Assembly: GCA_963667035.1 (NCBI GenBank)
Contig: OY762964.1
Coordinates: 2,528,001 to 2,592,000 of the forward strand
DNA length: 64,000 nucleotides
Source of the DNA: Candidatus Cloacimonadales bacterium
GTDB taxonomy: Bacteria; Cloacimonadota; Cloacimonadia; Cloacimonadales; JAFGVF01
Direction of reading: 5' to 3'
Part shown: positions 21,001 to 24,000 of the stretch, in pieces
Layout: the number at the start of each line of letters is the position of its first letter
Numbering within the stretch: position 1 is the stretch's first letter
Program-made: the position numbers

Positions 21001-24000
21001 CAACAAGATTAGCAACTTCTCCTTCGAGGTTCTTCATTGCTTTTTTTGATTCCATCTCAAGTCTTTTTTCACCTTCGGAAAGAAGCTTCTTATTTTGCAA
21101 ATGAGCTTCATCAATAATCTTATCAGCTTCTATCTGAGCTTCTTTTTTTATCTTTTCACGAAGATGTCTGGCTTCACTTGTAGCCTTTCTATATTCTTCT
21201 TCTTGAGCTTGAAGGAGTTTTTGAGCTTCCTCTTTAGATTTCCCAGCCGAATCTATATCTTCTTGAATCTGTTTCTGTCTTTTTTCCAACATCTCGCGTA
21301 AAGGCTTAAATGCCACTTTATTCAAGACAATCAAAAGCAGAATAAAATTCAGGATAACAACGACTAAAGAAACATCAATACTAATCATTTTTTATCCTTT
21401 ATACTGGTTGTGAACAAAATCGGTCTACTACCAAGTTAGGTTGTAAAAATAAGAAGAAGTGCAATAACTAATGAATAGATACCGGTTGACTCTGAAACAG
21501 CCTGACCGATAAGCATTGTTCTAGTTATAAGACTGGCATGTTCAGGTGAACGAGCGATACCTTCACAGGCTTTACCTGCAACGAATCCTTCACCGAGTCC
21601 AGGACCAAGAGCTCCGATTCCCATTGCGATACCTGCTCCCAAAAGAGCTGCTGCTTTAGCAATGTATTGTTCCATTTTTACCTCCGTATAGGTTTTTTTA
21701 TTTTTGTTTATCTAATTTATATAAATATTAATAGAAAAGCTACTACAAGAGCATAAATTGCAGTAGATTCCGAGACTGCGGCTCCAAGAAACATTGTTCT
21801 TGTTATGGTAGGACCTTGTTTGGAAAATCTTCCTAACATATCAGTTGATCTTCCTGCCACAAATCCGATTCCGATTCCGGGACCAAATGTCCCGAATCCA
21901 ATAGCAAGAGCAGCACCTATATAACCGCATATTCTCATTACAATATGCCCAGTTGTTACTGCTTCCGGTGTTATTGGTGTAGAATAAAGAAGTAGCAAGG
22001 ATACAACAAGAGCAAAAATAGCATCTGTTTGTGCTAGTGCTTGCCCTATAAGCATTGTTGTAGTTATCCTGTTCTGTTGATCAGGCATTCTTCCTATTGA
22101 GCGACAAGATTGAGCTCCTGTATAGCCCGAGCCAAAACCCGGTCCTATACTACCAAGTCCAATTGCTAATCCGGCTGCCAATAGAGTTCCGAATCTAAAC
22201 CAACCTGCGTCAGGATTATTCAAACCACTAAAAATCAGAAGAAGTGATACAACCAAACCAAATATAGCTCCGGTCTCAGTCACAGCCTGACTAATGAGCA
22301 TTGTTCTTAAAAGACCATCTCCTGCTTTTGGCTGTCTCATTAACGCAAAAGAAGCTTCTCCTGCTGTCTGACCTTCTCCTATACCTGCACTCAATGAGGC
22401 AACACCTGTTGCAACTGCCGCTCCAAGGAATGCTGCAATGTTAAGAATTTCTGATGTTAATACCATAGTTCCTCTCCTATTCCTCAGCAATAGCTACTGC
22501 AAGGTAACTCATAGCAAGCATTGCAAACACAAAAGCTTGAATTGTTCCTGCAAAAATTCCAAAGAAACCGTACAAACCGATAGGTACGATGATTAATTTG
22601 GTTAAAGCTGACACAACTAAAATAATAATGCCTCCACCCATGATGTTTCCGAACAAACGGAAAGAGATGGAAACCACTTTAGACAGCTCACCCACGATAT
22701 TTAACGGAGCTAAGAAGAACATCGGTTCTCCATACTCCTTCATGTATGCCCACAATCCTTTCTTCTTAATCGACATAAAATGTACAACTGAAAGGGCTGC
22801 AATACCCATTCCAAGTGGAACATTTAAATTTCTTGTCGGCTCAATAAATCCCGGTATAGGGATAATACCAATCAGATTACTAAACCATATAAACAAGAAT
22901 AATGTCAGTAGATAAGGTGTGAAATGAATGTTCTCTTTACCCAAAGTATCTTTAACCATTCCCTCAGCTCCTGCGTAAAAGGATTCTCCCATTATCTGGA
23001 GCTTTCCGGGATAGAAATTGACACCCTTGCGAATCATGATAGCAAGAACAATGAAGATGATGTCTACAATGAGTAACATCCTTAGAAGTTTGAAACTGTT
23101 AATTGTACTGGCATCACCGAAGATTTTGTGAAAGGTTAAATATAGCCCAATACTCTTATAGGGCAGGAATTCGGCTATTTCGTGTAATGCTTCTTCGTCA
23201 TTTTCTTCCTGATACAATTTAATTATTTCAGCGTTAGTCAATTGTTTTCCCGAACCATGTTTGACCTTCGCATGCATAACTTCAGATTCTCTGAAAAATG
23301 TATCCGGTTGAGTATCAGCAATAATCTCTTCCTGAAGCGAGGATTCCTCTTTCTCAATTTTGAGTCCGAATTTACCTGTTTCAGAATCCTTCCCTATTAC
23401 AATTGTACTTGTAAGAAAGAAAGATAGGACTAATTCGATAACAAAGAAGATTGCAAATAGCTTTAACAATCCCTTTTTCTTTTTCGACATATTTACTCCG
23501 CTATTTCTTTGCGAATCTGCTTTTAACAACAGATTCTATCAAGCTTCTTGCAAAGATAACACCTTGAGCAGATAAAAGCCCAAGACCAAATATTAATATA
23601 TCAGTTTTCAGGATCTTAACGGCAATTAACGAAAATGCTATTAAGAAAACGTAACGAAAATAAAAAACTTTCACCGTTTTTACCTGTGTACTTTTTGCTA
23701 TCGGACCGAATGCCCTGGCTGCCGCCAGATACATCCATATAAAGTTGACAGCACTTCCAAAAGAGCCTAAAAACCAACTGTAAGCTCCTCTGAAATTTGT
23801 CGGTATCAATAGGAGTGCAGGTATATTTGTCAAGCAAATAATAACTACTATTTCTGCTACAAATCGCTTTGTTGTCAAGTCTGTTTTACTTCCTTTCCTG
23901 ATGCTTTTCCGTTTTATAAAACTTAGTTATCAGTTTATATACTCCCCAAAATCCTGAGAAAATTCCAACTAAACAGAAAGTCGCTAAAAAAAGAGGAGAT

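Follow-up and report, generated by a model that had tools for sequence, protein, structure and literature searches.

In a rotary ATP synthase, the count of ion sites on the c-ring determines the ion/ATP ratio, and to our knowledge the sole F-type lineage known to lower this ratio by a fused, partly blind subunit is that of Acetobacterium woodii and Clostridium aceticum. The F1Fo operon of a Cloacimonadales bacterium, contained in the window analysed here (a 64,000-nt stretch of a genome that forms a single 3.10-Mb contig and is 98% complete), carries two neighbouring c-subunit genes, one for a protein of three hairpins (c3) and one for a protein of a single hairpin (c1). This raises the questions of whether c3 is a working rotor part, whether it shares a ring with c1, and which of its hairpins would hold an ion.

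Two c-subunit genes in the sole ATP synthase operon

The initial annotation had placed c ORFs of 249 and 79 aa in an F-type operon of the order gene1-I-a-c249-c79-b-delta-alpha-gamma-beta-epsilon; both ORFs are present, and the order was borne out by Pfam (Table 1). The c3 frame was read from an ATG, with its Shine-Dalgarno sequence 5 nt upstream. The two c genes are co-transcribed neighbours 41 nt apart and show no sign of separate regulation. The a subunit has the arginine motif FRLFGNIMGG and a hydrophilic N-terminal extension of ~120 aa, which is absent from the a subunit of Desulfosarcina widdelii.

Table 1. Positions of the ATP synthase genes, c3 hairpins and ribosome-binding motifs within the window
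Feature	Positions	Strand	Basis or remark
c3, 249-aa three-hairpin F-type c subunit	21717..22466 (stop codon included)	-	ORF, Pfam, AlphaFold2
c3 hairpin 1 (aa 5-79)	22230..22454	-	Glu31 in helix 1, Glu64 in helix 2; loop RQP
c3 hairpin 2 (aa 89-161)	21984..22202	-	Gln146 replaces the ion-binding Glu; loop RMP
c3 hairpin 3 (aa 172-248)	21723..21953	-	Glu233; Ile200 at position 32; Ser234, Thr235, Tyr238
Shine-Dalgarno GGAGAGG of c3	22471..22477	-	read off sequence; overlaps a-gene stop codon
c1, 79-aa single-hairpin c subunit	21436..21675	-	ORF, Pfam PF00137
Shine-Dalgarno GGAGG of c1	21681..21685	-	read off sequence
ATPase gene 1 / AtpZ-like	23886..24167	-	PF09527
AtpI	23501..23878	-	PF03899
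a subunit, 350-aa ORF	22477..23529	-	PF00119 at aa 151-343; likely ATG at 23490
b subunit	20912..21388	-	PF00430
delta / OSCP	20376..20909	-	PF00213
alpha	18855..20360	-	
gamma	17980..18834	-	PF00231
beta	16564..17961	-	
epsilon	16182..16571	-	PF02823, PF00401

The whole genome holds only four PF00137 hairpins, three in c3 and one in c1, and a single alpha/beta pair, so that this F-type operon is its sole ATP synthase. Also encoded are two RnfD/NqrB-family genes, two Na+-decarboxylase beta subunits and one membrane pyrophosphatase, a set of Na+-linked genes that fits with the reading of a Na+ rotor.

Family assignment and fold of c3

The three ATP-synt_C domains ascribed to c3 were recovered as three PF00137 stretches (E 4.1e-43, the best at aa 96-159), and the AlphaFold2 fold of six long helices in three hairpins was reproduced with a 42-row alignment (pLDDT 94.3, pTM 0.89). 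A standard F-type c subunit is one hairpin of ~70-90 aa with one carboxylate; c1 conforms to it in hairpin number and length, while c3 departs from it with three hairpins, two of which have a carboxylate. The best NCBIfam matches of c3 were F0F1 c models (NF009998, 1.6e-45, vs. 3.9e-18 for V-type K), the NF009998 score of 153.3 bits against a cut-off of 116 being summed over three stretches.

Two other identities were tried and rejected. As a V-type or A-type K subunit, c3 scored only 65.5 and 63.9 bits on the K models (cut-offs 211 and 188), and its operon is F-type. N-type ATPase operons lack delta. On the N-ATPase subunit c model (TIGR03322), c3 reached 126.6 bits against a cut-off of 130.85 though summed over three hairpins, and the operon here has OSCP/delta and the canonical order.

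Site residues and conservation of c3 and c1

Ion-site residues were written as a signature of positions 32. 65 66 67. 70 in the numbering of I. tartaricus and F. nucleatum. The strings TETG, AQTD and SESTAIY previously assigned to c3 are in the sequence, and the signatures read E.ETG.F in hairpin 1, S.QTD.F in hairpin 2 and I.EST.Y in hairpin 3. Glu31 and Glu64 of hairpin 1 are the predicted acceptor half of a two-carboxylate site. The description of c1 as a normal 79-aa c subunit with a full Na+ motif agreed with its single PF00137 stretch and with its sequence (GLGEG...SESTGIY, helix-1 Glu included); the two-carboxylate Na+ motif is E29...E62-S-T...Y67, with the signature E.EST.Y, and c1 matches 3zk1 (F. 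nucleatum c) and 4bem_A.

The c3 hairpins are mutually 37-40% identical, and the most conserved of them is the blind hairpin 2, with a mean pairwise identity of 0.708 vs. 0.649 for hairpin 1 and 0.696 for hairpin 3. The F1-facing loop motif R-x-P/S is retained by each, and each formed its own clade in a hairpin tree (SH-aLRT 94-99) that rests on 79 columns only. Since they keep separate clades and the loop motif, all three hairpins are, to judge from their sequences, under constraint.

The single-hairpin c1 is far more conserved (mean pairwise identity 0.859 vs. 0.65-0.71 for the c3 hairpins). Codon usage likeness to EF-Tu/EF-G was the highest of the operon in c1 (+0.126 bits per codon) and the lowest in c3 (-0.180), with a reference of just these two genes from one genome and only 76 scorable codons in c1. 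In 75 of 86 species, c1 exceeded c3 in GGT/Gly; for Ile codons, ATA was lower in c1 in 52/86 and ATC higher in 45/86. The conservation, the EF-Tu/EF-G-like codon usage and the GGT/Gly bias together give a weak hint that c1 may be an abundant ring component.

A proposed rule: ion sites between neighbouring hairpins

In the F. nucleatum structure, Ser66 and Val63 are contributed by the adjacent subunit, according to its report (PMC3692424). Fused c subunits were compared after clustering at 50% identity, with 133 of 150 representatives used. Tyr70 was found in 115/133 last hairpins, vs. 5/133 first and 10/196 internal ones. Among non-last hairpins, a carboxylate hairpin followed in 14 of the 15 with Tyr70 and in 157 of the 314 without (odds ratio 14, p 9e-4; the representatives and species in these statistics are related, so p-values overstate independence), and no link was seen in this set between Tyr70 and the carboxylate of the preceding hairpin (odds ratio 1.1). 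Among hairpins without a carboxylate, 35/46 last ones had Tyr70 vs. 3/127 others.

These counts suggest a site rule, new here, by which the carboxylate of one hairpin would be completed by the S/T/Y of the preceding hairpin; fused c subunits, A. woodii c1 included, would retain the junction site between subunits and lose the internal ones. Under such a rule, with junction sites kept, the S-T-Y of c3 hairpin 3 would more plausibly complete the site in the hairpin or subunit that follows. Around the Glu of hairpin 3 itself, Ile occupies the helix-1 ligand position 32, and Thr/Asp/Phe come from hairpin 2, so that this Glu is not predicted to form a canonical, full Na+ site.

Distribution and variation of c3

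The 410 homologues reported for c3 were confirmed, and among the best 120 of them, 116 were 242-257 aa long and 4 were longer. In a MAFFT alignment of 116 of the best 120, the 4 longer ones being left outside, the earlier residue counts stood: hairpin 2 carried Gln in 115/116; hairpin 3 carried Glu in 102 and Gln in 14, with S in 116, T in 112 and Y in 113; hairpin 1 carried Glu in 71, Gln in 38 and Gly in 7. Positions 32 and 65 of hairpin 1 co-vary in these 116 homologues (E/E in 62, S/Q in 38), and S-T-Y was retained in all 14 whose hairpin 3 carries Gln.

The claim that c3 is conserved through Cloacimonadota held in part. Matches were found in 129/232 genomes of the phylum, but c3 does not span the phylum, since it is missing from the large V-type family f3: this family gave weak matches only, in 3/98 genomes, and all five of its genomes that were checked carry a two-hairpin V-type K instead. 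There were no c3 matches in families f4 (0/2 genomes) and f10 (0/1).

Across 90 Cloacimonadota species loci from independent assemblies, the c3 ORF was intact, full-length and without a stop in every one, and the c3 + c1 pair was present in 89. A single-hairpin c immediately followed c3, with both on one strand, in 86; in the remaining four loci, c1 was on another contig (3) or the locus was cut at a contig end (1). The signature of the adjacent c1 in the 86 loci was E.EST.Y in 80, Q.EST.Y in 5 and E.ETC.Y in 1.

The number of carboxylates per c3 ranges from 0 to 3 and changed at least 12 times along the c3 tree of the 90 species. Six species have no carboxylate in any c3 hairpin (QQQ in 3, GQQ in 3); their ORFs are intact, the S-T-Y of hairpin 3 is retained and c1 adjoins, and the five of them that were checked have only the same four hairpins in the genome. 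Glu occupies all three c3 hairpins in 6/90 species, indicating that fusion is not always coupled to site loss. Hairpin 1 reads S.Q in 22/90 species, S-T-Y still being retained.

In Dependentiae, a related four-hairpin c adjoins the a gene with no single-hairpin c nearby, so rings of multi-hairpin subunits only probably exist. When genome contigs were searched with the Dependentiae-type protein P0235, no match was obtained; P0176 as query gave matches. Of the cluster names, only one pointed to a taxon, Gracilibacteria.

A probable mixed ring of c3 and c1

Considering the observed gene structure, fold, conservation, co-occurrence and site-residue pattern, c3 is probably a genuine rotor subunit that forms a three-hairpin block among c1 copies in one heteromeric c-ring of the sole F1Fo. 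A hybrid rotor of the A. woodii kind in which hairpins outnumber Na+ sites, as initially proposed, remains the best reading, given the co-conserved pair, the carboxylate-less c3 forms and the order of acceptor first and donor last; the part of the proposal that took S, T and Y for hairpin 3's own Na+ ligands should be corrected.

Such a ring would extend the A. woodii c1 + c2/3 hybrid rotor. Each ion site would be formed between two neighbouring hairpins, one supplying the acceptor half (helix-1 position 32 and helix-2 carboxylate 65) and the outer helix of the preceding one supplying the donor half (backbone 63, S/T66, S/T67 and Y70). Hairpin 1 of c3 would be a full acceptor (Glu/Glu), completed by the S-T-Y of a preceding c1 or c3, and hairpin 3 a full donor half (S-T-Y) for a following c1, so that a normal two-carboxylate Na+ site would arise at either edge of the block. 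Of the inner positions, that of hairpin 2 (Gln) would be blind, and that of hairpin 3, a Glu with neither a helix-1 ligand nor a Tyr, would be a simplified, less Na+-selective site or permanently protonated. With fewer canonical Na+ sites than hairpins, fewer Na+ would be moved per turn and per 3 ATP. Joint assembly of c3 and c1, their copy numbers, the ion specificity and any physiological gain are inferred from the observations above.

Structure prediction of the c3 + c1 pair gave a score of 0.58, vs. 0.00 for the best of 3 controls; at least 98% of contacts agreed between runs, and partner pLDDT was at least 85. The pass mark was reached by 116/157 solved complexes and 2/215 mismatched pairs, and scores of 0.60 or less by only 18/157 solved complexes and by both mismatches that passed, so this is a weak result, and because the solved 4BEM resembles c3 + c1, it may reflect that likeness only.

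The competing explanation that survives best, although we consider it unlikely, is that c3 and c1 form separate homomeric rings (e.g. 4 x 3 hairpins for c3), by condition or enzyme population, so that one operon would yield two gear ratios. In this genome, the donors of hairpin 3 match the acceptor of hairpin 1, and a c3-c3 junction would make a complete site (S-T-Y plus E/E), so that such junctions and even a c3-only ring are chemically possible; each of c3 and c1 also has a strong Shine-Dalgarno sequence of its own, and the Dependentiae arrangement points the same way. However, in the 6/90 species whose c3 lacks any carboxylate, a c3-only ring would have no ion site, yet c3 remains intact there and keeps its c1 partner, a point in favour of a mixed ring. 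In the 22/90 species with S.Q in hairpin 1, the c3-c3 junction would be dead, yet S-T-Y is retained. Separate rings also sit poorly with two closely spaced, co-transcribed genes, and the sole solved precedent has both subunit kinds in one ring.

Very unlikely, in our view, is that c3 is no working rotor part at all but a ring-assembly scaffold, an Fo plug or regulator, or a tolerated paralogue heading for loss. Its faster evolution than c1, its background-level codon usage and its drifting carboxylate count would suit such a role, whereas the full-length ORF in 90/90 species loci, the best conservation falling on the blind hairpin 2, the confident model with three c-like hairpins and the F1-facing loop motif in all of them speak for function in the rotor; donor retention specific to the last hairpin would make sense only beside a working carboxylate. 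One further possibility, an artefact in which an assembly or frame error joined three tandem atpE genes into the three-hairpin ORF, had nothing in its favour and is refuted by the open frame in all 90 independently assembled loci, the low identity among the hairpins, the conserved linkers and an AlphaFold model of one chain with pLDDT 94.

Comparison with known rotors

The Na+ F1Fo of A. woodii (and C. aceticum; PDB 4BEM) likewise has an F-type operon, in which a multi-hairpin c gene immediately precedes that of a single-hairpin Na+ c. Its fused subunit, A. woodii c1, resembles c3 in having Gln for Glu in one hairpin, and its signature (4bem_J), Q.ETS.F followed by Q.QTT.Y, has the carboxylate first and the T/S-T-Y donors last, as in c3. 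The best match of c3 was 4bem_J both in sequence (E 1e-26) and in fold (TM 0.84 normalised to target, rmsd 1.5 A, 164 columns); at 182 aa it is the longest solved relative, the top TM normalised to query being 0.62. Nine c2/3 and one c1 share a ring in A. woodii, according to PMC9171764, and the A. woodii operon has been expressed in an E. coli atp deletion strain. Unlike A. woodii c1, with two hairpins, 182 aa and one site, c3 has three hairpins and 249 aa, and its extra hairpin has a Glu with Ile at position 32. The Cloacimonadota c1 and c3 hairpin 1 use a two-carboxylate E...E in place of the Q...E motif; moreover, the phylum is another one, and carboxylates per fused subunit vary from 0 to 3 across it.

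The c11 ring of Fusobacterium nucleatum (PDB 3ZK1; PMC3692424) has a Glu32 besides Glu65, like c1 and c3 hairpin 1, and c1 also shares its S66, T67 and Y70; it is a homomeric ring of one single-hairpin c, unlike c3 + c1. V/A-type K subunits (Enterococcus hirae NtpK, PDB 2BL2; Cloacimonadota f3 K) share with c3 the fused hairpins and the loss of one carboxylate, and V/A-type proteolipids are fold matches of c3 at TM 0.8 normalised to target. According to PMC3604715, such a loss in K lowers the ion/ATP ratio, and the K ion site is built from 'residues from the same subunit'. The layout in K is thus opposite to that of c3, with the site within the subunit, hairpin 1 supplying the donors and hairpin 2 the acceptor; in the f3 K, T.STQ.Y comes first and a Q...E hairpin second. 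In contrast to V-type K, c3 scores far better on the F0F1 c models, and its operon has b, delta and epsilon.

Among archaeal A1AO enzymes, c subunits with 3 or 13 hairpins occur in Methanocaldococcus jannaschii (a triplicated proteolipid) and Methanopyrus kandleri. The M. jannaschii type, like c3, has three fused hairpins with fewer carboxylates than hairpins; these belong to A-type enzymes with presumably homomeric rings, which sets them apart from c3. Archaeal c subunits of '1, 2, 3, or even 13 hairpins' are mentioned in PMC9171764.

Desulfobacterales (Desulfococcus, Desulfosarcina widdelii PP31 and many MAGs) have four- and five-hairpin c subunits in the same Fo module, gene1-I-a-c(multi)-c1-b. 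The D. widdelii c1 is 73% and its a subunit, over the core, 46% identical to those of the window, and the Desulfobacterales c1 reads E.EST.Y in 75/76 loci. As in c3, the first hairpin of their fused c retains E and the last one S-T-Y; unlike c3, the fused c comprises four hairpins in 325 aa, typically with E,Q,Q,Q and hence three blind positions. D. widdelii PP31 and Desulfococcus multivorans are cultured carriers of the four-hairpin c and its c1 partner. Hairpin 2 of the two groups clusters together with weak support (SH-aLRT 82), and the deep relations of their hairpins (SH-aLRT 80-88 over 79 columns) are no more than suggestive. Engineered c fusions (c2, c3 ...) in E. coli and Bacillus PS3 also link F-type hairpins and yield working rings; these are lab-made from identical hairpins, whereas the c3 of the window is natural, diverged and site-edited.

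Beyond the mixed c3-c1 ring, a wider reading can be put forward, which is doubtful as a whole: the rotor would be a mosaic of canonical two-carboxylate Na+ sites at subunit junctions, blind Gln positions and a stripped-down Ile...Glu site in c3, either selective for H+ or promiscuous. Such an F-type motor would need fewer ions for each turn and run on Na+ and H+ simultaneously. Evolution would have re-tuned the number of each site kind repeatedly, and the same layout of first-hairpin acceptor and last-hairpin donor would hold, across several phyla, for a large and hitherto undescribed family of F-type c subunits with 2 to 12 hairpins.

Prior descriptions and significance

In line with the initial annotation, no earlier account of a six-helix F-type c was found; Brandt & Muller 2015, reportedly on the distribution of hybrid rotors, or Matthies 2014 may mention such genes. 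F-type c subunits of three or more hairpins, the four-hairpin c of Desulfobacterales included, were not described in the searchable literature. Where their text was available, papers on Cloacimonadota gave the ATP synthase merely as 'F-type' or 'Na+-dependent F-type', and one on Desulfatiglans gave 'two to four atpE copies', with a citation of Brandt & Muller 2015.

The three-hairpin version occurs in fermenters and syntrophs, anaerobes that live close to the thermodynamic limit, and the four- to five-hairpin versions in Desulfobacterales, major marine sulfate reducers; both bear on how models of syntrophic and sulfate-reducing metabolism account for ATP yield. The 0-3 sites per fused subunit constitute a natural series in which gear ratio, blind positions and mixed site chemistry may be set against thresholds of ATP synthesis. 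The junction rule assigns the site residues of a fused subunit to particular sites, a prediction that can be checked directly in a structure, and cultured carriers of the four-hairpin form, including Desulfosarcina widdelii, make it testable.

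Two c-Subunit Genes in a Single F-Type Operon

The F-type ATP synthase operon encodes two c subunits, c3 with three hairpins (H1, H2, and H3) and c1 with a single hairpin. A Shine-Dalgarno sequence stands 5 nt before the ATG of each gene, GGAGAGG for c3 and GGAGG for c1, and the 249-aa start of c3 was judged right because homologues align from its residue 1. The genome (3.10 Mb, 98% complete) consists of one contig with a single alpha/beta pair, and no c hairpins beyond those of c3 and c1 were found in the whole genome; this operon is its sole ATP synthase.

Features of the ATP synthase operon and its surroundings (window positions)
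Feature	Position	Strand	Description
Peptidase C25 protein	27073-30939	-	1288 aa; gingipain-family domain, E 5.3e-80
Radical-SAM/SPASM gene	25995-27017		
GAF protein	25525-25980		small
Flanking ORF	24411-25520	+	369 aa; no Pfam match at E <= 0.001
gene 1/AtpZ	23886-24167		F-type ATP synthase operon
AtpI	23501-23878		F-type ATP synthase operon
a subunit	22477-23529	-	ORF of 350 aa
c3	21717-22466	-	249 aa; three full ATP-synt_C stretches, E 4.1e-43
c1	21436-21675	-	79 aa; one ATP-synt_C stretch
b, delta, alpha, gamma, beta, epsilon	after c1, down to 16182		same operon
Flanking ORF	15006-15806	-	266 aa; no Pfam match at E <= 0.001
DDE transposase	13091-14386	-	431 aa; PF01609, E 8.4e-13

The a subunit would be about 337 aa long if started at the ATG at 23490, and its Pfam a-chain domain spans aa 151-343 only. 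Ahead of this domain lie a transmembrane stretch resembling a signal and about 90 aa of hydrophilic, Glu-rich sequence, the latter lacking in the 224-aa a subunit of Desulfosarcina widdelii. The transposase is about 1.8 kb downstream of the operon end, the C25 protein comes after the radical-SAM/SPASM and GAF genes, and in the 369-aa ORF, Cys-rich motifs at the N-terminus precede several hydrophobic segments.

Family Assignment and Fold of c3

The c3 hairpins fell with the F0F1 c models of NCBIfam (best 1.6e-45). The V-type K models gave 3.9e-18, far under their cut-offs, and the N-ATPase c model also scored under its cut-off, so both assignments were rejected. AlphaFold2 predicted six long helices forming three hairpins (42-row alignment; pLDDT 94.3, pTM 0.89). 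Among solved structures, the closest in both sequence and fold was the two-hairpin c1 of Acetobacterium woodii (4bem_J of PDB 4BEM; E 1e-26), with a target-normalised TM-score of 0.84 and an rmsd of 1.5 A over 164 columns. None of the solved chains spanned all six helices, the top query-normalised TM-score being 0.62.

The 410 homologues reported in the initial annotation were recovered, and among the best 120, 116 are 242-257 aa long and 4 are longer. Its residue counts at the carboxylate position of these 116 were likewise reproduced, with Glu in 71, Gln in 38, and Gly in 7 for H1, Gln in 115 for H2, and Glu in 102 and Gln in 14 for H3.

Fused c Subunits Keep the Acceptor Half First and the Donor Half Last

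Each hairpin was reduced to the I. tartaricus/F. nucleatum positions 32. 65 66 67. 70, in which the helix-1 ligand (32) and the carboxylate (65) make up the acceptor half, and 66, 67, and 70 the donor half. The window c1 reads E.EST.Y, which is the two-carboxylate Na+ motif given for F. nucleatum in passages of PMC3692424, and c3 reads E.ETG.F, S.QTD.F, and I.EST.Y. The typical four-hairpin c of Desulfobacterales (c4) reads E.ESA.F, S.QTP.F, G.QTP.F, and N.QST.Y, and the A. woodii c1, read from the printed alignment, Q.ETS.F and Q.QTT.Y. In all three fused proteins, the first hairpin retains the carboxylate and the helix-1 ligand, and the last retains Ser/Thr-Thr-Tyr, with or without a carboxylate of its own.

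The 150 listed representatives provided 133 test cases for this rule, the 17 dropped being one-hairpin fragments, rows gapped at scored positions, and the V-type-like giants P0163 and P0253. Of the last hairpins, 115/133 have Tyr70, compared with 5/133 of the first and 10/196 of the internal ones. A carboxylate hairpin came next after 14 of 15 non-last hairpins with Tyr70 vs. 157 of 314 without it (Fisher odds ratio 14, p 9e-4; with related representatives in the set, such p-values assume more independence than there is, but the direction of the effect is clear), and Tyr70 showed no association with the preceding hairpin (odds ratio 1.1). Among carboxylate-less last hairpins, 35/46 carried Tyr70 and 30/46 the full S/T-S/T-Y, and only 3/127 of the other carboxylate-less hairpins had Tyr70. 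These Tyr70 statistics argue that the preceding hairpin completes the acceptor half with its outer helix. The F. nucleatum structure, in which Ser66 and Val63 are supplied by the adjacent subunit (passages of PMC3692424), is consistent with this, and so is the V-type K ring, whose ion coordination is described as lying within one subunit (passages of PMC3604715). The V-type K of the Cloacimonadota family f3 has the opposite layout, with the donor hairpin (T.STQ.Y) first and the Q...E hairpin second, whereas fused F-type c subunits keep the inter-subunit junction site and give up the internal ones. The junction-site layout is what a block needs to be inserted among single-hairpin subunits without harming its neighbours' sites.

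Predicted Ion Sites of c3

In the window c3, H1 (Glu31/Glu64) paired with the S-T-Y of any preceding hairpin would give a regular two-carboxylate Na+ site, H2 (Ser113 and Gln146, with Thr-Gly-Phe from H1) would be blind, and S234-T235-Y238 of H3 would serve the next hairpin. For Glu233 of H3, Ile200 stands where Na+ sites carry Gln or Glu, and Leu/Thr/Asp/Phe would be received from H2. By the usual motif, taken as Gln/Glu + Glu + Ser/Thr (including in passages of PMC3692424), the H3 site itself is not a canonical Na+ site; sites with fewer polar groups, as in H3, are said there to tend towards H+ binding. The homologues fit this predicted reading: positions 32 and 65 of H1 change together (E/E in 62 and S/Q in 38 of 116), S-T-Y is still present in H3 of all 14 homologues with Gln there, and, across 90 species, position 32 is always hydrophobic in an internal hairpin with Glu, the all-Glu class reading I.ETS.F.

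Distribution and Evolution in Cloacimonadota

c3 was matched in 129/232 Cloacimonadota genomes and in nearly all families (e.g., f1 11/11, f6 8/8, f12 60/62, f14 6/6, f17 19/21), the exceptions being the large family f3 (weak matches only, 3/98), f4 (0/2), and f10 (0/1). All five f3 genomes checked have a two-hairpin V-type K in place of c3, in agreement with the split between a V/A-type and an F-type clade published in PMC12590816. The Ace Lake Cloacimonadota enzyme has been termed a Na+-dependent F-type synthase (PMC8542988), and the passages of these two papers examined make no mention of a fused c. In three f3 genomes (G073, G020, and G044; loci L038, L039, and L045), an extra single-hairpin c reading E...EST/ESS...Y lies on another contig, and may belong to a second (F- or N-type) ATPase.

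For the c3/c1 survey, 90 species loci were excised, 30 from the first phylum search and 60 more. The three-hairpin ORF is intact in all 90; a single-hairpin c follows directly downstream on the same strand in 86, lies on another contig in 3, and one locus is cut off at a contig end. By the residues at position 65 of H1, H2, and H3, the species fall into EQE (45, the window's class), QQE (22), EQQ (7), EEE (6), GQE (4), QQQ (3), and GQQ (3). Cloacimonadota H1, H2, H3, and c1 each formed one clade in a 111-hairpin tree (SH-aLRT 94, 96, 99, and 95), and therefore the fusion is old, with no homogenisation between hairpins. The H2 hairpins of Cloacimonadota and Desulfobacterales grouped together (SH-aLRT 82), as did the last c4 hairpins and c1 (82), which hints, in a tree of 79 columns only, that the fused genes share an origin. 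On the c3 tree, the carboxylate state requires at least 2 changes in H1, 3 in H2, and 7 in H3; with at least 12 changes in carboxylate number per c3, the gear seems to have undergone repeated re-tuning.

Evidence for a Probable Mixed Ring

Both c3 and c1 are present in 89/90 species loci. In 6/90 species (QQQ and GQQ), c3 lacks any carboxylate, although the ORF is intact, H3 keeps S-T-Y, and a full-motif c1 adjoins. Five of these genomes were checked, including three complete single-contig ones, and have only the four c hairpins of c3 and c1; there, a ring built from c3 alone would be inert for want of a carboxylate.

Mean pairwise identity over 29 loci was 0.859 for c1 vs. 0.649-0.708 for the c3 hairpins. 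In EF-Tu/EF-G-like codon usage, c1 was the highest (+0.126 bits per codon) and c3 the lowest (-0.180) of the operon, against a background of 26 ORFs with a mean of -0.115 and a maximum of 0.091, and in 75/86 species GGT made up a larger share of Gly codons in c1 than in c3. For the Ile codons, ATA was lower in c1 in 52/86 species and ATC higher in 45/86. Codon usage and GGT/Gly thus weakly hint that c1 is the abundant ring component, similar to the A. woodii ring, in which single-hairpin subunits are reported to predominate nine to one.

Weak support came from a predicted c3+c1 pair, which scored 0.58 vs. 0.00 for the best of three controls, with contacts agreeing by at least 98% between runs and partner pLDDT of at least 85. 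The pass mark was reached by 116/157 solved complexes and 2/215 mismatched pairs, and with a score of at most 0.60 it was reached by only 18/157 solved complexes, as well as by both passing mismatches. Because 4BEM is a solved structure, the predicted pairing may be likeness only.

Proposed Working of the Enzyme

The genome encodes the usual Na+ machinery, namely two RnfD/NqrB-family genes, two Na+-decarboxylase beta subunits, and a membrane pyrophosphatase. We propose that the enzyme would be a Na+ F1Fo synthase whose ring is mostly c1 plus one or a few c3 blocks. For illustration only, a ring of 11 hairpins was assumed, the size given for the I. tartaricus, F. nucleatum, and A. woodii rings. 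A plain c11 ring would use 3.67 ions per ATP, and one c3 with eight c1 (10 carboxylates, 9 canonical Na+ sites) 3.3 counting all carboxylates or 3.0 counting canonical sites only. Two c3 with five c1 (9 and 7) would use 3.0 or 2.3, respectively. The possible gain is ATP synthesis with fewer ions, or a larger Na+ potential via hydrolysis.

The literature searched yielded no account of a natural F-type c subunit having at least three hairpins, an earlier mention being possible. The closest published case, as far as those sources go, is the hybrid rotor of A. woodii and C. aceticum. Archaeal c subunits are stated in PMC9171764 to have '1, 2, 3, or even 13 hairpins', and Rnf-dependent anaerobes often carry several atpE copies, as remarked in a paper citing Brandt & Muller 2015.

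Relatives Outside the Phylum

With a 323-aa Desulfococcus protein as the query, 118 stretches were obtained from genomes of Desulfobacterales, and 80 loci were retained; a four-hairpin c is present at 79 of them and is immediately followed by a single c at 76. The cultured D. widdelii PP31 has the order gene1-I-a-c4(325 aa)-c1(82 aa)-b'-b, with 73% (c1) and 46% (a subunit) identity to the window. Among 1.84 billion representatives searched, 1418 matched at E <= 1e-3, with lengths clustering at about 160, 245, 320, and 410 aa and F-like forms of up to 524 and 968 aa.

A separate four-hairpin c family, adjoining an a gene, occurs in Candidatus Dependentiae. At such loci from this group and other MAGs (L126-L131; matches near 7001-7960), the four-hairpin gene comes directly after an a gene and a small ORF resembling AtpI, and the 7 kb downstream contain neither a single-hairpin c nor a b or F1 gene. 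The family typically reads Q.ETG.L, S.QTP.F, S.ETP.F, and S.DTC.Y, its last hairpin carrying Asp. The F-like proteins P0142 (968 aa, 12 hairpins), P0174 (524 aa, 7; annotated as a hypothetical protein of Candidatus Gracilibacteria), and P0123 (434 aa, 5) keep Glu in nearly all hairpins, and the V-type-like P0163 and P0253 have 15 hairpins in 1139 aa and 8 in 631 aa, respectively.
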